From contig CAWIPK010000007.1 of the NCBI GenBank assembly GCA_963837925.1, positions 81,124 through 145,123 of the forward strand: DNA of 64,000 nt, given 5' to 3'. Both the position numbers and the translations under genes were made by a program. Source of the DNA: an uncultured Chloroflexia bacterium. GTDB lineage: Bacteria > Chloroflexota > Anaerolineae > CG2-30-64-16. Shown here in pieces: positions 40,165-49,430 of this stretch (position 1 is its first letter; each line of letters begins with the position of its first letter). The notes under the pieces were generated by a model that was not told the DNA's origin, searched no databases, and saw nothing but the letters and a program-made list of their open reading frames with translations.

Positions 40165-41532
40165 TCAGTGGGGCATGGGAGTCGCCACGGAGACGCCCGC
40201 CTGGTCCTTGCCCCTGCCATTGCCGGACGGCGCCCGGCGAAACTCCGGTTCGCTAAGCACTCGCTCGAGCAACTCCCAATCACGCGCTACCAACGGGAAC
40301 TGCTTGACGAACCAACCCACCGCTTCCCAGGCGATCGTCCGCCAGGTGCCGAAGAAGGGGGCTGTGAGGCGGAGCGCATGCAGCGTTTCGCACAAGCGAT
40401 CGATCTCCTGATCGGACATGCGCATCAGGCCCAATATCAGCTTCCGCTCCGCCTCCAGGCTGCTCAGGATCGGGTCCTGGAAAAGCTGCTGATAGCGCTG
40501 GAACTGAACCCGCGACACATCCCCGGAATCCAAGGCTTCGGCGGCGAGCAGTGCCGCCTGCCTGCCCAGGTAGAGCGAGGGGATGATTCCAAGGTGGCCA
40601 CCCGGGGTGGTCGCATCGCCGAGGCCAAGGAAGCCGTCTTGGGCGATGGTCACCGGCGCGTCGCGCATCACCAGCTTGTGCGTCGAGCCGCCGATGACCT
40701 GCGAGCCCACGAAGAGGTCCTTCACCCGTGGATCGCTCTGCATGTACTCATCCAGGAAGTACCAGAGCGAGCGATCGGTGTGGTAGCGTGCGCCGTCGGC
40801 GAAGATGGTGAAATAAACCGACGCGCGGCCGGGCGCCGGCAAGACGACCGTGCCAAACGCTTGCTGCGCCGAAGTGTAGCGCCTGCCGAGAGTGACCAGT
40901 TGGCCGAGATGCTCCGCCGTCACGGCGGGCGCGAACAGATCCTGGCTGACCACAAACGCGTAGCGCTTGGCCGGAGGGACGCGTGCGTACAGGCCTGCCT
41001 CCTCACAGAGTTGGCGTGCGGTGCCTTCGGCAGACAGCACGACCTCAGCCTGAATGGCGCCGCCGCCCGTGCGAACGCCGGTTACTCTGCCGCCGTCCTG
41101 CACCAAGCCGATGGCGGCTGTCCCGAACCGCAGCTCCGCTCCGGCCGCCTCGGCCTGTGCGGCGAGCAGACGCAGTAAGCCGGGTTTGTCGACGACTGCA
41201 AGCGGGAAATCATCACTGGACGAGTAGGGCGCGCTGAACTCCTGGCCGCTCGGCCCCACCAGGCGCTGAACGGTCGGATAGCCGGCGATCAGCGACGAGG
41301 GAAGTGAGAGATCCAGTCCGGCGAAGCGGATCCCGCTTGCGGAGCGTTGCGCCGAAACAAAGCCCGGCACGGGCGCGATCATCGCCCCGCAGGGGTAAGA
41401 TAGATCCCCAGCCGCATTCAGCCGGTCAAGCACGAGCGTCCGGAAACCCAACCGGGCGGCAGTCCGCGCTGCACCCAGGCCGGCCGGGCCCGCTCCGACG
41501 ATGAGAACCTCGCATTTTTGGCTGCTCATCAT
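40165..41532 (-). CDS. FAD-dependent oxidoreductase (geranylgeranyl-reductase/FixC-like superfamily), paralogue 1
   Basis: Dinucleotide fold VLIVGAGPAGLGAARTAARLGF..VLD and a GD motif DGFLGLGDA. It aligns over its full length with 46507-47916. Confidence 0.8.
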   Translation of the reverse strand: MMSSQKCEVLIVGAGPAGLGAARTAARLGFRTLVLDRLNAAGDLSYPCGAMIAPVPGFVSAQRSASGIRFAGLDLSLPSSLIAGYPTVQRLVGPSGQEFSAPYSSSDDFPLAVVDKPGLLRLLAAQAEAAGAELRFGTAAIGLVQDGGRVTGVRTGGGAIQAEVVLSAEGTARQLCEEAGLYARVPPAKRYAFVVSQDLFAPAVTAEHLGQLVTLGRRYTSAQQAFGTVVLPAPGRASVYFTIFADGARYHTDRSLWYFLDEYMQSDPRVKDLFVGSQVIGGSTHKLVMRDAPVTIAQDGFLGLGDATTPGGHLGIIPSLYLGRQAALLAAEALDSGDVSRVQFQRYQQLFQDPILSSLEAERKLILGLMRMSDQEIDRLCETLHALRLTAPFFGTWRTIAWEAVGWFVKQFPLVARDWELLERVLSEPEFRRAPSGNGRGKDQAGVSVATPMPH

Positions 41533-41565
41533 AGATCCTTCCTCTGCCCTGCGCAGATTTCCGAT

Positions 41566-41757
41566 CTAGCGGTCCAGGACGCCCCTGATGCCACCGAACA
41601 CCAGAACCATCAGGAACAGCCCGCCCATCGCCGCGTAAGCGAGCAATCCCGCATACAAGCCCTGTTGCCCGGCGATTGCGTTACCGAGCAGCAGGGGCCA
41701 AACGGAGGTCACTGCTACCAATACCACGATACTCAGCCTCTGCATCAGCCGTCGCAT
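41566..41757 (-). CDS. Small two-helix membrane protein (63 aa), hypothetical
   Basis: Two hydrophobic helices (LSIVVLVAVTSVWPLLLG and LFLMVLVFGGI). GAGGTG RBS. It ends 33 nt upstream of the oxidoreductase start. Confidence 0.5.
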   Translation of the reverse strand: MRRLMQRLSIVVLVAVTSVWPLLLGNAIAGQQGLYAGLLAYAAMGGLFLMVLVFGGIRGVLDR

Positions 41758-42019
41758 AATCGCACCTCATCTCAATACCACTCAGTACTGCACTTGATAA
41801 ATCGCAGAGTCTCCCTCTTGCTCATATGCCCCGATATAGCGTATCGTGGTTTTCTGATCGTCGTACAGCGCCGTACAGCTTGGTGCGGCGCGCTCTCCGA
41901 CCTTTTCGGACAAGACGCTATCGGTACTATTGTGCTCCTGGCGCAGTTCCTCGAGCACCCGGCTCGCGTTTGCGTCGGGTGAGACCGAGACGGCAACAAC
42001 GACGGTCCAAGGTGGTCCT

Positions 42020-42394
42020 TCAGCCCAAAGCAGATGTCCATTCGCCGTTGTAGACGGCCCGCACCTTCGTTACCAGGTCATCGAGCGTATCGTGTTCGGA
42101 CACGCATGCAGCCGCGCCCGCAGCCAGGTAAGCCAGGGTTCCGGCTTCCTCATCGGCAACGTCGATGGCCAGCACTCGGGTCCAGCCGCGCGAGACCGCG
42201 CTGATGATCTCGCACGCTTGGGCCTCGGACAGTTCGGCGCTCACAAGCACGACATCGCTGCGGTCGAGTTGCGCCAACGCCTCGTCAGCATCCGAAGCGA
42301 AACCCACAATACTCATGTCCGGCTCGTCGCGGAGCACGAGCCGCATGATGTCGCGCATGTTTGGATTACGGTCGACAACCAACAAACGTATCAC
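42020..42394 (-). CDS. Stand-alone pseudo-receiver (receiver fold lacking the phospho-acceptor Asp), paralogue 1
   Basis: NarL-type receiver pattern IRLLVVDRNP...EPDMSIVG...EAL...DVVLVSAELS...AACVSEHD. Ser replaces the acceptor Asp and Glu replaces the conserved Lys. GTG at 42394 is chosen because both paralogues then start GTG-AT(A/C)-CGT-TTG (MIRL). Confidence 0.7.
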   Translation of the reverse strand: MIRLLVVDRNPNMRDIMRLVLRDEPDMSIVGFASDADEALAQLDRSDVVLVSAELSEAQACEIISAVSRGWTRVLAIDVADEEAGTLAYLAAGAAACVSEHDTLDDLVTKVRAVYNGEWTSALG

Positions 42395-42441
42395 GGCCAA
42401 CCTCGGCAAACCTTATCGGGGACGACTAGCAGTGCGTGCGA

Positions 42442-42492
42442 ATTGTAAGGCCGGTTAGCAACCGCGCGGAAGCGTAGAATACCGGGATTTTT
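42442..42492 (-). promoter_or_regulatory. Promoter region of pseudo-receiver 1: -10 TACAAT plus conserved upstream element
   Basis: On the minus strand, AAAAATCCCGGTATTCTACG-cTTCCGC-18 nt-TACAAT. The same architecture is found at 48496-48545. Confidence 0.5.
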
Positions 42493-42815
42493 GCAGGAGT
42501 ATGATTCCTGGGGTATCTACGCGCGTACAGTATGAAACACCTAGATTGGTGCCGATAAGAATGGTAGAAACTACGCAAGAGATTTGGCGAAACAGGCGGG
42601 TACAAACTACGGAGTGCCAGCCGAGCGCCAGATATGGGTTCGGCGAGTCGGAGCGTCTGTCGCCTGACTGAGCATGGGGAGGAGAGCGCGCGGCGCCCGC
42701 TTCTGGCCGGCGACAGTCCTGCTCATGCCGTTAGGAACCTGGACTACAGCGCGCCCGGTGGCATTCATCTACCTCTATGGCGCGCGAGTACCAGAACGAC
42801 GCGGGGAGAAAGCAA

Positions 42816-43475
42816 ATGTCAAGCACACAACCCGACGGTTACCTCGCCACTGCCCCGGGCGCCAGTGGCAACGGAGTGCTGGTCCTCCACGCCTGGTGGG
42901 GGCTGAACGACACGATGAGGGCTTTCTGCAGGCGACTGGCGGAATCCGGCTTCGTGGCCTTCGCCCCAGACCTCTACCATGGCAAGGTGGCAGACAGCAT
43001 TGCCGATGCGGAAACGCTGGGCAGAGCTCTCGACGCCAACCACGTCCCGGCCAAGGCGGAGATCGCGGAGGCCACAGGCTTTCTGGGCGAACGGATTGGG
43101 GCGGCGGGCGGCAAGCTCGCAGTAGTTGGCTTCTCTCTGGGCGCCTATTATGCACTGGACCTCGCCGCCGCCGATCCCGAACACATCCGTTCCGTCGTCA
43201 TCTATTACGGGACCGGCGGCGGCGATTTCAGCCCCTCGAGAGCCTCCTACCTCGGTCACTTTGCGGAGAACGATGAGTTTGAGCCGCAGTCCGCCGTCGA
43301 CGACTTGGAGCAGCAACTAAGGCGTGCCGGCCGGCCAGTGACTTTCTATCGTTACAGCGGCGTTGGGCACTGGTTCTGCGAACCCGACCGCAGAGAGGCA
43401 TACAACCAGGCGGCAGCGAGCCTGGCGTGGGATCGGACCCTGGCCTTCCTGACGAGTACCTCGAAGGCAGCTTAG
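42816..43475 (+). CDS. Dienelactone hydrolase-family alpha/beta hydrolase
   Basis: GVLVLHAWWGLN, the nucleophile-elbow region VVGFSLGAYYA and C-terminal GVGHWF. ATG at 42816 follows GGGGAGAAAG. Confidence 0.85.
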   Translation: MSSTQPDGYLATAPGASGNGVLVLHAWWGLNDTMRAFCRRLAESGFVAFAPDLYHGKVADSIADAETLGRALDANHVPAKAEIAEATGFLGERIGAAGGKLAVVGFSLGAYYALDLAAADPEHIRSVVIYYGTGGGDFSPSRASYLGHFAENDEFEPQSAVDDLEQQLRRAGRPVTFYRYSGVGHWFCEPDRREAYNQAAASLAWDRTLAFLTSTSKAA

Positions 43476-43565
43476 TCGACACGCGGTGTCGAAGGATGCG
43501 CGGTCACCGGCAACGACGTGGTGGGCAAACTCGTGTCTGAAGCTCAAGCGATCAAGCGATTGACC

Positions 43566-43594
43566 TTGACACAGGCATTGACATGGCATATCCT
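43566..43594 (+). promoter_or_regulatory. Sigma70-type promoter (TTGACA, 17-nt spacer, TATCCT) upstream of slyD
   Basis: -35 at 43566-43571 and -10 at 43589-43594. Confidence 0.45.
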
Positions 43595-43634
43595 CAGGTT
43601 CGTGGACTGAAGGTTTCAGTCAGATAACGCTAAG

Positions 43635-43678
43635 AACGCCGCCCGATCTTATCGTGGTCTGGGTGGCGTTCTCTTGTT
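43635..43678 (+). terminator. Terminator-like hairpin in the slyD leader (AACGCCGCCC / GGGTGGCGTT then CTCTTGTT)
   Basis: A 10-bp stem with one G:U pair and a 16-nt loop, followed by a weak U-rich tract. It lies between the predicted promoter and the slyD ATG. Confidence 0.4.
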
Positions 43679-43698
43679 GGGAAGGATGTGTTTAGCGA

Positions 43699-44250
43699 AT
43701 GCCAAACGAAGAAATGACAGTCAGCGACGGGATGGTCGTCAGCATGGATTACAGCCTACGGCTCGACGAGGACGAGGAAATGGTGGACAGTTCAGCCGGG
43801 CGCGAGCCTCTCGAGTTCGTGCAAGGTGGCGGCCAGGTCATCCCTGGTCTCGAGCAGCAGATATACGGGATGGGCGTCGGGGATGAGAAGAGTGTGGTGG
43901 TCCCGCCGGCCGACGGCTACGGGGAAGCCGACAGCGAAGCCTATCAACTCATGCCGCTCGAGGCTTTTCCGGCCGACATGACCGTGGAGCCGGGGATGGG
44001 TCTCGAGCTGCGTGACGAGTTGGGACAGGCAGTGCAGGCCTACGTTGCCGACGTGCGGCCTGACGGAATCGTGCTCGACTTCAATCACCCGCTGGCAGGC
44101 AAGACGCTGCACTTTGACGTCAAGATAACCGCGCTGCGCCAGGCGACTGAGGCAGAGTTGGCGCACGGCCACGTCCACGAGGGCCACGAGCATGACGACG
44201 AGGGCGAAGATTTCGACGAAGTCGATGAGAGCGAGGGCGGCGCCCACTGA
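43699..44250 (+). CDS. slyD: FKBP-type peptidyl-prolyl isomerase, SlyD-like, with a His/acidic C-terminal tail
   Basis: FKBP core with an insert-in-flap layout (VVSMDYSLRL...FVQGGGQVIPGLE...DFNHPLAGKTLHFDVKI), and a tail HGHVHEGHEHDDEGEDFDE. Confidence 0.88.
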   Translation: MPNEEMTVSDGMVVSMDYSLRLDEDEEMVDSSAGREPLEFVQGGGQVIPGLEQQIYGMGVGDEKSVVVPPADGYGEADSEAYQLMPLEAFPADMTVEPGMGLELRDELGQAVQAYVADVRPDGIVLDFNHPLAGKTLHFDVKITALRQATEAELAHGHVHEGHEHDDEGEDFDEVDESEGGAH

Positions 44251-44290
44251 CGCCGGCGCCCCGCGCGGCGCACTGAGCGCGCACTGCCGA

Positions 44291-44941
44291 TCAGCGACGA
44301 TGTTTGTCAAGCAAAGCCAGGTGCTGCAGAGCGATAACGGTCTTCGCATCGCGAATTTCACCGTGGTTTATCATCTCCAGCGCCCGGCCGAAGGGGATGG
44401 TTACCAGTTCGGTATCCTCCCCTTCCGCCGCGACTCCTCCACCCTTGCCACTGTGCTCAGCGGCGCTGATCTCGGCCCAAAAGACCAAAATGCTTTCTGA
44501 GCTGCCGCCTGGACTGGGGTAGACGGTCGCGATAAAGTGCGGCTCGCTCTTCAGCTCGTAGCCGGCTTCCTCGAGCAGCTCCTTGCGAGCGACCTGGCCG
44601 GCATCCAACCCCGTGTCCTGCACGCCCGCCACAATCTCGAGCAGCCAGGCTTGCCGTGCGCCCGCGCCGTTCTGGTCCGCCGGATCGAGAGACGCGAACA
44701 CTGGGTAGCGGAACTGCCGGACGAGGGAGACCGCATCCTGACCCCGGTCATACAGCAGAACGCCGACTGAATTGCCGCGCTCGAAACTGAGCCGGGTGAC
44801 CGGATCGCTCAGCGTCCCATCGAAGCGCCGGAACTGGAGGCGCGCACGAACAACTCGGAACAACGTTTTGTAGTGGTAGTCTTCACTAAGCTCCAGCACC
44901 TGCACGAGGGGTGGTGGGGCTGCATCGAAGGCTGCAGACAT
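44291..44941 (-). CDS. NUDIX hydrolase (nucleoside-diphosphate-sugar pyrophosphatase type)
   Basis: Nudix box AGVQDTGLDAGQVARKELLEEAGY. ATG at 44941 follows AAGGAGG. Confidence 0.85.
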   Translation of the reverse strand: MSAAFDAAPPPLVQVLELSEDYHYKTLFRVVRARLQFRRFDGTLSDPVTRLSFERGNSVGVLLYDRGQDAVSLVRQFRYPVFASLDPADQNGAGARQAWLLEIVAGVQDTGLDAGQVARKELLEEAGYELKSEPHFIATVYPSPGGSSESILVFWAEISAAEHSGKGGGVAAEGEDTELVTIPFGRALEMINHGEIRDAKTVIALQHLALLDKHRR

Positions 44942-45105
44942 GACGACCTCCTTAGCGGCGCGTGGTCGACGTTTATCACCTATACCACAAGGCGCCCGGT
45001 CGCGCAACAGGTTTTCTGGCAGCGCGCAGATTTGCCGCGCACCGGCAATTGGGGCAAAATGGGCCTGTTTGCGTCTGCGTCCTAACGAGAGCTAGAAAGG
45101 AAGTC

Positions 45106-46503
45106 ATGATGCCCAGGGATTACAGCCGCTTGGTGGCCGAGCTTGCACAGAGCTACCGGCAGCATTCGCCTAAGTCAGCGGAGCTGAATGAGCGCGCGCA
45201 GCAAGTATTGGTCGATGGGGGAAGCCACGCGCTGCGCTTGATCGAACCGTTTCCACCACGCATCGTGCGTGCATCAGGAGGCTATGTCTGGGATGAGGAC
45301 GGGCACGCCATCCTCGACTTCTGGCAGGGTCACTTCGCCAACATCCTGGGGCACAACCCGCCCGAGATTGGTACGGCGCTGGCGGAGGCTTTTGCCGGCG
45401 GTTCGGGCTTGCAGACGGGCTTCACAGACAGGCTGCAGATCGAGACGGCCGAGATCCTCTGCCGGCAGACCGGAGCCGAGCGGGCCCGCTTCACGACCAG
45501 CGGCAGCCTGGCGACGATGTACGCTATCTTGCTGGCGCGTGCCTTTACCGGACGCGACCTGGTGATGAAGGCCGGCGGGGGTTGGCATGGCGCGCAACCG
45601 TGGGGCCTGAAAGGGGTGAGTTATCAGCCGGGCCGCGGCTTCGATCACCTGGACAGCCAAGGGTTGCCGCCTGCCGTCGCCGACGACCTGCTCCTGACTG
45701 GCTACAACGACGCCCAGATGCTCACGGATCAGTTCCATCAATTCGGCGATCGCATCGCCTGTTTCATCGTCGAGCCGTTCATCGGTGCCGGCGGCAGCAT
45801 CCCGGCCAAACGTGAGTACCTGCAGGCCGCGCGCCGGTTGACCAGCCAGTACGGAGCCGTGCTGATCCTCGACGAGGTCATCGCCGGCTTCCGTTTCCGA
45901 GCCGGCAACATGGGGGCGCTGTATGGCATCACGCCCGACCTGGCAACCTTTGGCAAGATCATGGGTGGTGGCATGCCGGTTACTGCAGTCGCCGGTCGAG
46001 CCGATATCTTGAACCTGACGGGACGGCCGGGAGGCAGCAAGGTAAAGTTCTCGGGCGGCACCTATTCAGCCCACCCCGCTTCGCTGCTGGCAGCCAAGAC
46101 GATGATGACCTACCTGGCAGAGCACGAGCGAGAGGTCTACACCCGACTGGGAGAACTAGGGGAGAAAGCGCGCCTGGCGAGCGAGGGGGCTTTTGCCGCC
46201 GAGGGCATCTGTGCGCGCTCGACAGGTCCGTCCCCTGAGCTCCCGCTGGGGAGTTCCATGGTTCACCTGCATTTCCCTTACAAGCCGGACCAGCCGCTCG
46301 AGACCCCGGACGATGTCTTCGATCCGGCCTTGTGCGATCCGATGCTGAGCGAACACGTGTTGCGGCTGGCGCTCCTGCTAGAAGACATTCACACCGTCCA
46401 CGGCCTAGGCGCGCTCAGTTGCGCCCACACCGAGGCTGACCTGGCCCGCCTGGCCGAGGCCTGCCGGCGCGTGGCACGCCGCATCAAGCCATACCTGGCC
46501 TGA
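45106..46503 (+). CDS. Class-III (GSA-aminomutase-like) PLP-dependent aminotransferase
   Basis: RFTTSGSLATMYAILLAR, ILDEVIAGFR and TFGKIMGGGMP (the PLP lysine). Confidence 0.88.
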   Translation: MMPRDYSRLVAELAQSYRQHSPKSAELNERAQQVLVDGGSHALRLIEPFPPRIVRASGGYVWDEDGHAILDFWQGHFANILGHNPPEIGTALAEAFAGGSGLQTGFTDRLQIETAEILCRQTGAERARFTTSGSLATMYAILLARAFTGRDLVMKAGGGWHGAQPWGLKGVSYQPGRGFDHLDSQGLPPAVADDLLLTGYNDAQMLTDQFHQFGDRIACFIVEPFIGAGGSIPAKREYLQAARRLTSQYGAVLILDEVIAGFRFRAGNMGALYGITPDLATFGKIMGGGMPVTAVAGRADILNLTGRPGGSKVKFSGGTYSAHPASLLAAKTMMTYLAEHEREVYTRLGELGEKARLASEGAFAAEGICARSTGPSPELPLGSSMVHLHFPYKPDQPLETPDDVFDPALCDPMLSEHVLRLALLLEDIHTVHGLGALSCAHTEADLARLAEACRRVARRIKPYLA

Positions 46504-46506
46504 GCG

Positions 46507-47916
46507 TCAACTTAGCACTCGAACTCGAAGCGGCACAGCAGGTAGACCATCCGCATGAGCAGCCGTCCCCAATTGGCCGGCAGCCAGAGGGGCGGTCGAT
46601 ATGGATAGTAGCTCATGGCCGTTCTCGATTTCCCTGCCCTCCGGCAACACGCGGGCGAGCAGGTCCCAGTCACGCGAGATGAGCGGGAATTGCTTGAGAA
46701 GCGATCCCAGCATCTCCCAGGCGATCATGCGCCAGTTACTGTAGTGGGGCGTCGTCAAGTGCAGGGTGTTGAGAGTCTGGCAAAGACGGTCGATGTCCTC
46801 ATCACCAATGCCGGTCAGGTTCGTCACCAGCCTGTTCTCGGCCCCCAAGCCGTGCGCGATCAGGCGATGTGAAACGGGAGTGTAAGCCGCCAGGCAGCCG
46901 GCGCAAGTATCCCCCAAGTCCAGCGCTTCGGCGGCGATCAGGGCCGCCTCGCGGCCGCCGTAAATAGCGGGCAGGAGGCCGAGCTGACCGCTGGCGGTGA
47001 TCGCGTCGCCCAGACCCATAAAACCATCGCCCACGACCCGCTGCGGCGCGTCGCGGATCACGATGCGATGTCCGGCCCGACTGACGATGCGGGAGCCAAC
47101 GAAGAGGTCTTTAACGCGTGGGTCGTTCCACACGTATTCATCGAGATAGGCCCAGCAGGACTGCACCGTGATGTCCTTGGGGTCGTCGGCAAAAACGGTG
47201 AAATATGCCCAGGCCCGGCCTGGAGAGGGCATGACGACCGTGCCGAACGCTTCACGCGCCGAGCTGTAGCGCTGCCCGAGGGTGATGATCTGCCCGAGCT
47301 GAGCGGCCCCGACCGCCGGGGCCTGCACTTCCTGGCTGACCACGTACGCGTAGCGGCGGGCGACCGAGAACTGTCCGAAAAGGCCTGCCTCTGCGCAGAG
47401 ACGACGGGCAGTGCCCTCGGCCGAGAGGACGACGCTCGCCCGGACGTCACCCCGGCTGGTTCGTACCCCGCAGACGCGATCACCTTCAAAAATGAGACCA
47501 AGCGCGGCCGTGGCATAACTCAGTTCAGCGCCTGCGTGAGCAGCTTGTTCGGCCAGACGCCGCAGCAACCCGCCAGGGTCGATGACGGCCACCGGCAATG
47601 AATCCCGTGCGAAAGCCAGGTCAAGATCCTGGCCGCCCGGGCTCTTGCACAGCCGCTGCCTGGGAAAACCGGCGATCAGCACATGGGACAGGTCCAGGTC
47701 GATCTCGGGGCAGTAGAGGCCATCGCCCTGCTGCTCGATAGATATCAGGCCGGGTATGGGAGCAATCACTCCGCTGCACGGGTGCGCCAGGGCGCCGCGA
47801 CCCGGCAGCCGCTCGAGAACGAGGGTGCTGAATCCCAGCCGAGCCGCCGTCCGGGCAGCACTGAGACCGGCCGGCCCCGCGCCGACCACCACTACTTCAT
47901 AATTGCCAGCCAACAT
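46507..47916 (-). CDS. FAD-dependent oxidoreductase, paralogue 2
   Basis: VVVVGAGPAGLSAARTAARLGF..VLE and DGFMGLGDA. It is collinear with 40165-41532. Confidence 0.8.
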   Translation of the reverse strand: MLAGNYEVVVVGAGPAGLSAARTAARLGFSTLVLERLPGRGALAHPCSGVIAPIPGLISIEQQGDGLYCPEIDLDLSHVLIAGFPRQRLCKSPGGQDLDLAFARDSLPVAVIDPGGLLRRLAEQAAHAGAELSYATAALGLIFEGDRVCGVRTSRGDVRASVVLSAEGTARRLCAEAGLFGQFSVARRYAYVVSQEVQAPAVGAAQLGQIITLGQRYSSAREAFGTVVMPSPGRAWAYFTVFADDPKDITVQSCWAYLDEYVWNDPRVKDLFVGSRIVSRAGHRIVIRDAPQRVVGDGFMGLGDAITASGQLGLLPAIYGGREAALIAAEALDLGDTCAGCLAAYTPVSHRLIAHGLGAENRLVTNLTGIGDEDIDRLCQTLNTLHLTTPHYSNWRMIAWEMLGSLLKQFPLISRDWDLLARVLPEGREIENGHELLSISTAPLAAGQLGTAAHADGLPAVPLRVRVLS

Positions 47917-48012
47917 AACAGCCAGTCATCTCCAGACACACACGCTTATGGGCCGGCCGCCCGCGCTCCGCCTGGGCGGGACACCTGGGCGACCCCCGGT
48001 GGCGGTCGCGAG

Positions 48013-48453
48013 CTAGCCGATAGGCGATCTCACCGGAGGCGCGTCGAAAAGCAAGGGCCCTTCCGAGTGGCCGAAATCAAAATTGGCACGCGGCTTTCCC
48101 TCCTGCAAAGTCCGCATCTTGCTCAGGAGTTCGTCGAGCGAATCTTCTTCCAGCGCGTAATCGGTGACGCCCGCAGCCGCATACTGCAGAAATGCCTCCT
48201 GGGTATGCGCCCAGTCCATCAGGACAACCTGGGGACCATCAGCGTGCGCTGACGCCGCGCGTGCCAGTTGAAGCACGCCCTCGCACGGCAAGTCGGCCGT
48301 GACGAGGATCAAATCGCACTCGCCGAGATGAGGCAAAGCCTCGGCCACGGAAACGGCTGAACCAACAACTAGGATGTCCGGCTCCCCACTCAGGATGGCC
48401 GTCATCAAGTTGCCCAGGGACTGATCTTTATCCACGATGTACAAACGGATCAC
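48013..48453 (-). CDS. Stand-alone pseudo-receiver, paralogue 2
   Basis: IRLYIVDKDQ...EPDILVVG...EAL...DLILVTADLP...TDYALEED. Thr replaces the acceptor Asp and Glu replaces the conserved Lys. Confidence 0.7.
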   Translation of the reverse strand: MIRLYIVDKDQSLGNLMTAILSGEPDILVVGSAVSVAEALPHLGECDLILVTADLPCEGVLQLARAASAHADGPQVVLMDWAHTQEAFLQYAAAGVTDYALEEDSLDELLSKMRTLQEGKPRANFDFGHSEGPLLFDAPPVRSPIG

Positions 48454-48495: not shown

Positions 48496-48545
48496 ATTGT
48501 ATGAGACAAAGCGAGGATTGTGAACCGTAGAAGCCGGGGATTTTC
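48496..48545 (-). promoter_or_regulatory. Promoter region of pseudo-receiver 2: TTCACA, 17-nt spacer, TACAAT plus conserved upstream element
   Basis: On the minus strand, GAAAATCCCCGGCTTCTACG-gTTCACA-17 nt-TACAAT. This parallels 42442-42492. Confidence 0.5.
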
Positions 48546-48578
48546 TGGCGGAAATAACGCGGAGAAACTACTGACGGG

Positions 48579-49229
48579 TCAGGTATTCTCCTCCAATAGG
48601 CCGTGTTCCATGGCGTAGTGCACCAACTCGACGCGACTATTGAGTGACAGCTTGCCCATTATGTTGGAACGGTGGCTCTCGACCGTCCGAACGCTAAGGC
48701 AGAGAGATTCGGCAATCTGGCGATTGGTGTTGCCCTGGGCGATCAGACGCAGGACCTCGATCTCACGACGGGTGAGAGCCTTGAGCGAGCCGGCGGTCTG
48801 CGATTCGGCCCCGGCTACGTCCTGAAGCAGCGCACGGGTCATGGCCGGGTGCACGTAAAGATCGCCGTCGGCCACCGAGTGAATGGCGTTGATAAGCTCT
48901 GACTCGACGGCCCGCTTGATGATATAGCCTGCGGCGCCTACCCGGACCGCTTCCTGCAGCAGGCTGTAGTCCTCATGCACGGTCAGAATGAGTACGGCAA
49001 TCTCCGCGTGGCTCTCCTTCAGTTGCTGGGTGACCTCGATACCCGTCAGGCCCGGCATGTTTACGTCCAGCAGCAGCACATCCGGGCGCAAGGTCACCGC
49101 CTGGCGCAACGCCTCGTCGCCGTCCGCAGCCTCCCCGATCACTTCCATGTCGGGTTCGGCATTCAGCAATGAACGCAACCCTGCCCGCAAGACACCGTGA
49201 TCGTCGGCAATGAGAATCCTAATGGGCAT
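48579..49229 (-). CDS. NarL/FixJ-family response regulator (canonical receiver + LuxR HTH)
   Basis: ILIADDHG, DVLLLDVNMPG, LILTVHED, GYIIKRA, and the HTH LTRREIEVLRLIAQGNTNRQIAESLCLSVRTVESHRSNIMGKL. ATG at 49229 follows GGAGG. Confidence 0.9.
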   Translation of the reverse strand: MPIRILIADDHGVLRAGLRSLLNAEPDMEVIGEAADGDEALRQAVTLRPDVLLLDVNMPGLTGIEVTQQLKESHAEIAVLILTVHEDYSLLQEAVRVGAAGYIIKRAVESELINAIHSVADGDLYVHPAMTRALLQDVAGAESQTAGSLKALTRREIEVLRLIAQGNTNRQIAESLCLSVRTVESHRSNIMGKLSLNSRVELVHYAMEHGLLEENT

Positions 49230-49385
49230 CTGGTACCTCCACGGACACCGTCGGGCCTTCATCCAATCGCGAGAACTTCAACCGGCGCCTCTCCGGTGAG
49301 CCAATCTCAAACCCAGTGCAGACAAAGGCCAACCTGCTGCGGATCGTACGAATTATACCACGCATTTAAGGAAAAGCGTTCTTGC

Positions 49386-49414
49386 TTGACAGGTGTCCCC
49401 TTCCCCCCTACAAT
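49386..49414 (+). promoter_or_regulatory. Sigma70-type promoter of lhr (TTGACA, 17-nt spacer, TACAAT)
   Basis: -35 at 49386-49391 and -10 at 49409-49414, with the ATG at 49431. Confidence 0.55.
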
Positions 49415-49430
49415 TTCCTCGAGGAACCCT

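Follow-up and report, generated by a model that had tools for sequence, protein, structure and literature searches.

Two paralogous operons in a 64,000-nucleotide stretch of DNA from an uncultured Chloroflexia bacterium (contig CAWIPK010000007.1, positions 81,124 to 145,123; the whole stretch is called the window hereafter) each carry a gene for a small stand-alone pseudo-receiver (R), a receiver-like protein without the phospho-acceptor aspartate, followed by a gene for a flavin adenine dinucleotide (FAD)-dependent flavoprotein (Ox) of the geranylgeranyl reductase (GGR)/FixC fold. Comparison with related loci established how the operons are built, that R is a pseudo-receiver and Ox a GGR-like flavoprotein, that the modules are under purifying selection and that a conserved promoter and operator stand in front of them. 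The explanation that in our view fits best, an Ox regulon under two-component control whose co-transcribed pseudo-receiver acts by protein contact, is offered tentatively and, taken whole, with slightly less than even confidence. An earlier note made from this sequence had reported four of the open reading frames (ORFs) listed below as two paralogous two-gene modules, and all four are present on the minus strand as it described. It had overlooked the gene of a 63-amino-acid protein, TM63, and the promoter and operator that lie upstream of both R genes. The genes of the two modules are as follows.

48013–48453, minus strand: R2, stand-alone pseudo-receiver of 146 amino acids (aa), ORF with AlphaFold2 and Foldseek support

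46507–47916, minus strand: Ox2, FAD-dependent flavoprotein of the GGR/FixC fold, 469 aa, ORF with profile and fold matches

42020–42394, minus strand: R1, stand-alone pseudo-receiver of 124 aa with a GTG start, ORF with a Response_reg match

41566–41757, minus strand: TM63, ORF of 63 aa with two hydrophobic helices, 33 nt upstream of Ox1

40165–41532, minus strand: Ox1, ORF of 455 aa, paralogue of Ox2

Ox1 and Ox2 align from end to end with 53 % identity and 71 % positives (E 6e-155), in line with the earlier estimate of about half, and the sequence blocks quoted for that estimate are found in the alignment. R1 and R2 are 34 % identical (E 1e-20), which bears out the paralogy of the modules as a whole. 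Relatives (numbered L) were gathered from the gene neighbourhoods of Ox-family matches and a tblastn survey of all compared loci, and a genome scan for Ox relatives with a generic GxGxxG stretch as the pattern yielded one true relative, L009. Three closely syntenic loci are L081 (GCA_017882045.1) and L082 (GCA_036726245.1), both from NCBI, and L083, from an ENA metagenome assembly. Conservation of the receiver-flavoprotein adjacency in other genomes, which the earlier note had proposed to look for, was readily found: R stands directly upstream of Ox in every compared locus with an Ox that reaches 47 % identity to that of the window, and the order R then Ox recurs in at least six distinct lineages (window, L081-83, L002, L001, L008, L003 and L085/86). 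Three module types can be distinguished, R1-TM63-Ox1, R2-Ox2 and a third with an R of 101-102 aa (R101) that is present in L003, L085 and L086. Two modules each are carried by the window, L002, L081, L082 and L083, and R2-type modules by L001 and L008. Synteny in L081-83 extends over Lhr, kinase, NarL regulator, R2, Ox2, aminotransferase, NUDIX, FKBP, R1, TM63, Ox1 and thioredoxin. Orthologues of R1 occur in L081-83 and L002, and those of Ox1 in L002 and L082 are 84-87 % identical.

At some junctions R and Ox are translationally coupled, the stop codon of R overlapping the start codon of Ox in L008 (TAATG) and the two being joined as TAA-GGAGGCAAG-GTG in L003. There is no terminator-like site between R and Ox in the window. 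Insertions were observed inside two modules, fragments of insertion sequences (DDE_3, ISL3) between R and Ox of L001 (6446-7903) and a phage-type integrase gene between R1 and TM63 of L002 (6761-7747); these mobile-element insertions are independent and lie at the same junction. In the window the gap between R1 and Ox1 measures 487 nt and accommodates TM63, which has counterparts of 71-76 % identity at the equivalent place in L002 and L081-83 and no match to a Pfam family. The co-encoding of this protein with its two hydrophobic helices may place the action of Ox at the membrane. A further ORF of 58 aa in the gap between R1 and TM63 (41782-41958, minus strand) is not conserved and matches no Pfam family, and is probably no gene because the gap measures only 125 nt in L081-83.

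All parts of the modules are under purifying selection, with ratios of nonsynonymous to synonymous substitution rates (dN/dS) of 0.13-0.19 for R1, 0.17-0.24 for R2, 0.13 for R101, 0.25-0.33 for TM63 and 0.12-0.27 for Ox (0.12 for Ox1). The values for R cover a long divergence at which synonymous sites are near saturation. The small proteins are thus not decaying, as the earlier note had argued from the loss of the same catalytic residues in both copies. This range of dN/dS also makes it very improbable that the adjacency is nothing but inherited synteny, with R a tolerated leftover of a regulator and the two modules the product of a segmental duplication. Such a history would suit the confinement of all R-Ox loci to a narrow set of related uncultured genomes, and the mobile elements in L001 and L002 that entered modules without the loss of either gene. 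It sits badly with the retention of R in three module types whose R proteins have only 33-43 % mutual identity, with the conserved replacement residues described below and with the coupled junctions.

The R proteins are placed among receivers by both profile and fold. Response_reg (PF00072) was the only Pfam family that they matched, none of the six minor pseudo-receiver families named in PMC12632262 being found. In this search, one of the checks put forward in the earlier note, R1 scored above the gathering score (31.8 against 30.2 bits) while R2 (20.0 bits) and the 101-aa type (18.2 bits) fell below it. Modelled with AlphaFold2 from an alignment of 48 sequences, R2 shows the (beta-alpha)5 fold, five strands alternating with five helices, at a predicted local distance difference test (pLDDT) value of about 90 over residues 1-120, with residues 122-146 forming a disordered tail. 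The top PDB matches of the model in Foldseek were the receivers of Spo0A, DesR, CheB and the NarL family, at target-normalised template modelling scores (TM-scores) of 0.75-0.85 for Spo0A, DesR and NarL. By Pfam, R1, R2 and R101 contain no GerE/LuxR helix-turn-helix, and their ORFs end within or just past the receiver fold. The types differ in structure, R101 ending at strand beta5 without helix alpha5 and R2 having an extra disordered C-terminal tail that R1 lacks.

To map the active-site residues, R1 and R2 were aligned with CheY and NarL of Escherichia coli and with five canonical regulators from the neighbourhood. Of the five catalytic positions, R1 and R2 keep CheY D12 (DD1) alone. The second acidic residue, D13 (DD2), is K or R in the window copies and K, R, N, Q or P across stand-alone R proteins. 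The acceptor D57 has given way to Thr in R2-type proteins and to Ser in those of the R1 and 101-aa types, so that every stand-alone R examined has a hydroxyl residue at this position. T87 is replaced by D or N in stand-alone R proteins (D in R1 and R2), and K109 by E in R1 and R2, the position being absent in R101. The resulting sets are D8 / K9 / T52 / D80 / E102 in R2 and D / R / S / D / E in R1, and the replacements, D or N at the T position and E at the K position, are conserved within the stand-alone subfamily. By comparison with the neighbouring regulator the earlier note had correctly reported the loss of the acceptor Asp, of one acidic residue and of the Lys, and had missed the change of T87 to D. 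Its author would have given up the claim had a structure-guided alignment placed an Asp at the acceptor position; in the R2 model it is Thr52 that occupies the structural acceptor position, because strand beta3 spans residues 48-52, and Asp54 follows two residues on in the loop. Judged by alignment and model, R1 and R2 are pseudo-receivers (aspartate-less) as defined in PMC12632262, and presumably neither can be phosphorylated on Asp.

The loss of these residues is older than the modules. A profile of R retrieved further stand-alone proteins of the R1, R2 and 101-aa types together with full-length proteins of 218-250 aa that combine a non-Asp acceptor with a GerE helix-turn-helix, and a hidden Markov model (HMM) search of 1.84 billion representatives gave 1,326 matches at E ≤ 1e-30. 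The 137 best full-length members have Ser at the acceptor position in 65 cases, Asn in 27, Asp in 14, Gly in seven and Thr in six; the T position is Gly in 111 of these 137 and the K position is variable. Examples include P0106, P0112, P0121, P0122 and P0233-P0378, the GerE domain of P0112 being confirmed by Pfam. In a neighbour-joining tree all R types cluster with the Asp-less full-length proteins and apart from the neighbouring canonical regulators, and a recent duplication of the receiver of the neighbouring NarL regulator was therefore rejected as their source. The tree and searches show that R branched off from a large NarL/LuxR-type family already devoid of the aspartate and lost the DNA-binding domain; it is a version of that regulator family minus one domain and not a new kind of domain. 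Because the source family is already Asp-less, the shared loss in R1 and R2 is inherited and not convergent, so that it offers no independent evidence for the conserved role that the earlier note had drawn from it. We found no characterised member of this Asp-less family in the literature, the nearest studied analogues being BldM/WhiI, SecR and CmrT. A link of the full-length proteins to Ox was considered and dropped: the one long contig with such a gene (L084, encoding P0112) contains neither an Ox nor a promoter of the R-Ox type, and no R-Ox locus contains a full-length Asp-less paralogue.

The conserved pocket raises the idea that R is a switch of another kind, operated by Hanks-type Ser/Thr phosphorylation at the acceptor position or by a metal or ligand in the acidic pocket (D8, S/T52, D/N80, E102) and relayed to Ox or to a regulator. 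Its appeal lies in the Ser or Thr of every stand-alone R examined and in the D/N and E replacements of a subfamily whose full-length relatives mostly have Gly at the T position and a variable K position, and ligand-binding pseudo-receivers are known, such as ShkA with cyclic di-GMP. We nevertheless think it improbable, as no Ser/Thr kinase or phosphatase is conserved in the compared loci and the acceptor is often N or G in the wider family, so a hydroxyl is no family requirement.

The Ox family is rare, with 50 clusters at E ≤ 1e-10 among 5.8 billion proteins. A profile search of the PDB placed the digeranylgeranylglycerophospholipid reductase of Thermoplasma first (3oz2, E 5.6e-30) and FixC second (7koe_C, E 1.3e-20). 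The AlphaFold2 model of Ox2 has a mean pLDDT of 80, with low confidence over the distinct C-terminal region (residues 388-469), and its best structural match was again 3oz2 (TM-score 0.79), followed by Sulfolobus GGR and FixC. Both proteins stay below the cut-off of the geranylgeranyl reductase model TIGR02032 (Ox1 60.7 and Ox2 69.5 against 158.8 bits), and the FixC model NF007542 gave 46.7 bits against a cut-off of 610. GGRs have an active-site cysteine behind the flavin (Cys47 in the Sulfolobus enzyme SaGGR, Cys45 in the Thermoplasma enzyme TaGGR; PMC6309074), a YxWxFP(x7-8)GxG motif that positions the substrate and a GGG motif (PMC6309074, PMC12004948). In a profile alignment Cys47 of Ox2 falls on the cysteine of the TaGGR VRCGE sequence, and this cysteine is kept in 42 of 46 Ox family members. 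A GD motif is common to both families, and GGG is replaced by G-H-L-G in the Ox family. At the site presumed equivalent to YxWxFP the Ox consensus reads [FY]G[TM]VVxPxPGRA, a stretch that HMMER left unaligned to TaGGR. From alignments and model we regard Ox as a family of its own, a distinct offshoot of the GGR/FixC fold. Proteins of the Ox2 type (window 46507-46620; P0004, P0005, P0006) also end in a conserved C-terminal tail, (V/A)PLR(V/L)R(V/I)L(S/N), after a variable linker; this tail ends VPLRVRVLS in Ox2, and Ox1 has none. In the Ox tree Ox1 and Ox2 form sister clades (87 % bootstrap), each with its own R type, and the clade linked to R101 groups with the R-less L004 (100 %).

Enzymes of the GGR and FixC type often have the gene of a small electron donor beside them (Isobe 2014, as cited in PMC6309074; FixABCX, 7koe), and receivers have a flavodoxin-like fold. 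R could on these grounds be imagined as a flavodoxin-like electron carrier or cofactor partner of Ox, comparable to the ferredoxin of Methanosarcina geranylgeranyl reductase or to FixX for FixC. This is hardly credible: the searches described above place R among NarL-type receivers and not flavodoxins, R has neither the phosphate-binding loop for flavin mononucleotide nor a conserved Cys cluster, and R101 has a mere 101 residues. No genes for electron transfer flavoprotein, FixX or ferredoxin were found in the compared loci.

Both operons of the window begin with the same promoter and operator arrangement, and a canonical response regulator gene lies immediately upstream of R2. These features are as follows.

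48496–48541, minus strand: predicted core promoter of the R2-Ox2 operon, ATCCC-N5-TCTACGGTTCA(-35)-N17-CATACAAT(-10), with a promoter scan match from 48524 to 48496

48561–48571, minus strand: distal operator-like near-palindrome GTAGTTTCTCC, conserved in orthologous loci

42442–42488, minus strand: predicted core promoter of the R1-TM63-Ox1 operon, ATCCC-N5-TCTACGCTTCC-N18-CTTACAAT

42564–42610, minus strand: two distal operator-like sites before R1, GTAGTTTCTAC (42564-42574) and GTAGTTTGTAC (42600-42610)

48579–49229, minus strand: canonical NarL-type response regulator with DD / D / T / K intact and a GerE helix-turn-helix

With at most one mismatch GTAGTTTCTAC has three matches in the 64 kb, all upstream of R1 or R2, where 0.13 would be expected by chance. 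A composite element, ATCCC-N5-T[CAT]TAC[GC][GC]TTC[AC]-N16-19-C[AT]TA[CG]AAT, stands once before each R gene and nowhere else in the compared loci, and can be read as a predicted sigma-70-type promoter in which a conserved element directly adjoins the -35 of a -35/-10 pair. A scan of JGI metagenomes with the composite pattern returned five stretches, four of which are R-Ox modules; the fifth, L090, is a chance match inside an unrelated ORF. Across all loci the 8-mer CGTAGTTT occurs only in R-Ox upstream regions, and every module (window, L001, L002, L003, L008, L081-83 and L085/86) is preceded by the same architecture of upstream CGTAGTTT-type sites, AAAATCCC-N5-TCTACG beside the -35 and a TACAAT -10. 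Leaders differ in length, measuring about 45 nt in R1 and R2 modules and 225-290 nt from the -10 to the start codon, with conserved patches, in R101 modules (L003 7398-7685; L085 6778-7000); the long leader could be regulatory.

Ox relatives that are 41-51 % identical to the window proteins occur without an R gene in L004/5, L006, L007 and L009, and recognisable variants of the promoter and operator stand directly before Ox in three of these four R-less loci (L004/5, L006 and L007), with none before Ox in L009. Since R-less loci carry these variants, the promoter belongs to the Ox family and R has been inserted between promoter and Ox in three Ox clades. The unit proposed in the earlier note as undescribed therefore holds up in one respect, no described pairing having been found, and has to be modified in another, as R is not an obligatory part of it.

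The neighbouring NarL-type regulator, whose canonical status we confirmed, had served the earlier note as an alignment reference only, and its likely role as the controller was overlooked. The distal operator of the R2 module in the window begins 8 nt past the stop codon of this regulator gene. The related loci L001 (2110-4521), L008 (1435-3399) and L081-83 (L081 5068-7326) have a PAS/GAF/HisKA_3 kinase between Lhr and the regulator, and the Ox gene of L006 comes directly after genes for a hybrid kinase (receiver/GAF/HisKA_3) and for a NarL-type regulator. The helix-turn-helix of the regulator is nearly identical, with single substitutions, in the window, L081, L008 and L001, and its recognition helix is kept in L006. 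The R-Ox operator was not found in the promoter of the kinase-regulator pair, a region that has its own, different conserved promoter. This divergent region between Lhr and the regulator or kinase (window 49300-49400, minus reading; L081 4959-5067; L008 1272-1434; L001 1191-1354) carries conserved elements of its own, ATTGTAG(G/A)GGG, CCTGTCAAG and GTGGTATAATT.

These observations can be assembled into a mechanism in which the operator would be read by a LuxR-type DNA-binding regulator, the likeliest candidate being the NarL-type regulator upstream of R2-type modules. As this regulator has a PAS/GAF kinase partner in relatives, the Ox paralogues would form one signal-controlled regulon. Ox would reduce, or exchange electrons with, a lipophilic membrane substrate such as a polyprenyl or quinone compound. 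R would be made together with Ox and act only through protein-protein contact, with no Asp phosphorylation, its most likely target being its own co-encoded Ox, for which it may be a dedicated regulatory or assembly partner. We favour its own Ox as the target because old duplications have left every Ox paralogue with a diverged R of its own, because the R types differ structurally and because some junctions are coupled, and hold this part of the proposal with confidence somewhat short of even. A more specific form of it, in which R is an allosteric or assembly subunit of a new clade of GGR-like flavoenzymes, its pocket rebuilt as an acidic D / S-T / D / E site for a metal or for one of the enzyme's basic side chains and the three R types, a complete fold, one with a tail and one without alpha5, matched to the three Ox paralogues, is on balance unlikely.

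Several observations weigh against this mechanism. In the window there is no kinase beside the regulator (49230-49430), and the kinase gene of L081, L082 and L083 is broken into three ORFs, which points to its decay there while the regulator stays highly conserved. The case for the regulator as a candidate reader of the operator consists of adjacency and conservation, and the R101 modules of L003 and L085 have no such regulator within 7-8 kb. Catalysis can do without R, since R-less Ox relatives stand behind variants of the same promoter. YxWxFP, the substrate-positioning motif of GGRs, is present in none of 47 Ox family members. Only two alignment columns of Ox separate R-associated from R-less members, and these are uninformative and give no sign of a docking patch. 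Finally, to judge from its ancestry, the default partners of a NarL-type receiver domain would be other receivers or a kinase.

This last point favours a rival in which R, as a shortened paralogue from a family of dimerising regulators, would modulate transcription as a decoy or by feedback, and not the enzyme, forming heterodimers with the NarL-type regulator or with a full-length Asp-less LuxR-type paralogue, or occupying the docking site of the kinase. Since R is expressed from the promoter that it would modulate, such an arrangement closes a feedback loop. R is nested phylogenetically in a family whose other members have the GerE helix-turn-helix, R1 and R2 keep alpha1 and alpha5, the NarL-family dimer surface named in PMC12632262, and R is the first gene behind a regulated promoter right after a kinase-regulator pair. 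The missing R-specific surface signature on Ox agrees with it as well, mechanisms of this class are listed for pseudo-receivers in two-component operons (PMC12632262), and precedents exist in the heterodimers of WhiI and BldM and in what has been proposed for CmrT of cmrRST. A decoy would nevertheless make two or three diverged R proteins on one regulator redundant, yet each is under purifying selection, and R101 without alpha5 is also without the NarL-type dimer surface. The adjacent kinase has been lost (window) or fragmented (L081-83) while R1 and R2 were retained, R-less genomes keep the same operator, and an Asp-less full-length partner is, as noted above, missing from every R-Ox locus, L084 having neither Ox nor such a promoter. 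We consider a decoy role unlikely, though a possibility to be reckoned with, and retain contact of R with its own Ox as the tentative interpretation. The earlier interpretation is, overall, partly supported.

Pseudo-receiver, or aspartate-less receiver (ALR), domains are the subject of reviews (Bourret et al. 2025, PMC12632262; Maule et al. 2015, PMC4395418). R resembles the reviewed ALR domains in being recognised as a receiver by HMM and fold, in missing catalytic residues, in a role that would be independent of Asp phosphorylation and in the readier loss of DD2 than of DD1 (PMC12632262). It differs from them in standing alone without an output domain, in an operon with an enzyme, and in a conserved D / S-T / D-N / E set in place of four of the five catalytic residues. 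BldM/WhiI of Streptomyces, SecR of Aminobacter (PMC13199381), CsgD and VpsT have receiver-like domains of the NarL type that work independently of Asp phosphorylation, as R would, and WhiI acts by heterodimerising with another regulator (PMC12632262). The receiver plus GerE architecture of the BldM/WhiI type is that of the full-length relatives of R, whereas R1, R2 and R101 have no helix-turn-helix. CmrT of Clostridioides difficile (cmrRST) is, like R, a pseudo-receiver protein beside a normal kinase-regulator pair with which it is presumed to work; CmrT is however an OmpR-type DNA-binding regulator, whereas R lacks an output domain and shares its transcript with a flavoenzyme.

On the side of the enzyme, TaGGR (3oz2), SaGGR (3atq), MenJ, Bsr and FixC (7koe_C) have the FAD-binding fold, active-site Cys and GD motif in common with Ox, which departs from GGR and FixC in its scores far below the family cut-offs, in the absence of YxWxFP, in G-H-L-G for GGG and in its distinct C-terminal region. 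The arrangement of the locus recalls DesK-DesR, in which the neighbouring gene of a membrane-lipid redox enzyme, the des desaturase of Bacillus subtilis, is controlled by a HisKA_3 kinase together with a NarL-type regulator (compare PMC4823666). DesR is among the best structural matches of R2, but DesKR has no pseudo-receiver, its enzyme is of a different family and may act on a different substrate, and the kinase here is of the PAS/GAF type. No description of an operonic pseudo-receiver-flavoprotein pairing, of a subfamily without helix-turn-helix or of the shared operator was found in the literature. The pairing is real, conserved and undescribed, and is built from known parts, pseudo-receivers and GGR-like flavoproteins.

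Between the two modules of the window lie genes for a dienelactone hydrolase, a SlyD-type FKBP, a NUDIX ADP-ribose pyrophosphatase-like protein and a class-III aminotransferase, and Pfam and NCBIfam confirmed all four assignments made in the earlier note. The last of these is the following feature.

45106–46503, plus strand: class-III (glutamate-1-semialdehyde aminomutase-like) aminotransferase, profile matches, convergent with Ox2

The aminotransferase gene ends at 46503 and the stop codon of Ox2 at 46507, which confirms the spacing of 3 nt reported before. It adjoins all Ox2-type modules, in the same arrangement in L001, L002, L008 and L081-83, and is as such a conserved neighbour with at most a putative functional link to Ox2. 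The intervening genes had been seen as an accessory block bracketed by the modules; as the hydrolase is absent in the closest relatives, they are better explained as inherited synteny. Two to five paralogues of the URO-D family (PF01208) and a sugar-type ATP-binding cassette (ABC) transporter stand beside Ox in L003 (5223-6230, 9470-13422) and L001 (12845-15045), and no such cluster was seen near the modules in the scanned part of the window. An Rfam search of the whole window gave no match. In the PADLOC protein models R1, R2 and TM63 had no match, the sole match being one of 19 bits to the generic FAD-binding N-terminus of Ox2, and a link of the modules to anti-phage defence is not supported.

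How pseudo-receivers switch and what they target has been called 'a mystery' (PMC12632262), and nearly all of those studied are DNA-binding regulators or domains fused to their targets. The R-Ox system is rare and occurs only in uncultured bacteria. It is directly testable, offering a minimal pseudo-receiver of 101-146 aa with a conserved, chemically inverted pocket and no output domain, a candidate partner in the co-translated flavoenzyme and a candidate controller in the adjacent NarL-type regulator with its defined operator. It also brings out two uncharacterised families, the large Asp-less NarL/LuxR regulators and a branch of the GGR fold that retains the Cys and lacks YxWxFP, the substrate of which may be a membrane isoprenoid or quinone. 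Should R prove to be a subunit of Ox, it would be the first receiver-derived protein that controls a redox enzyme in trans.

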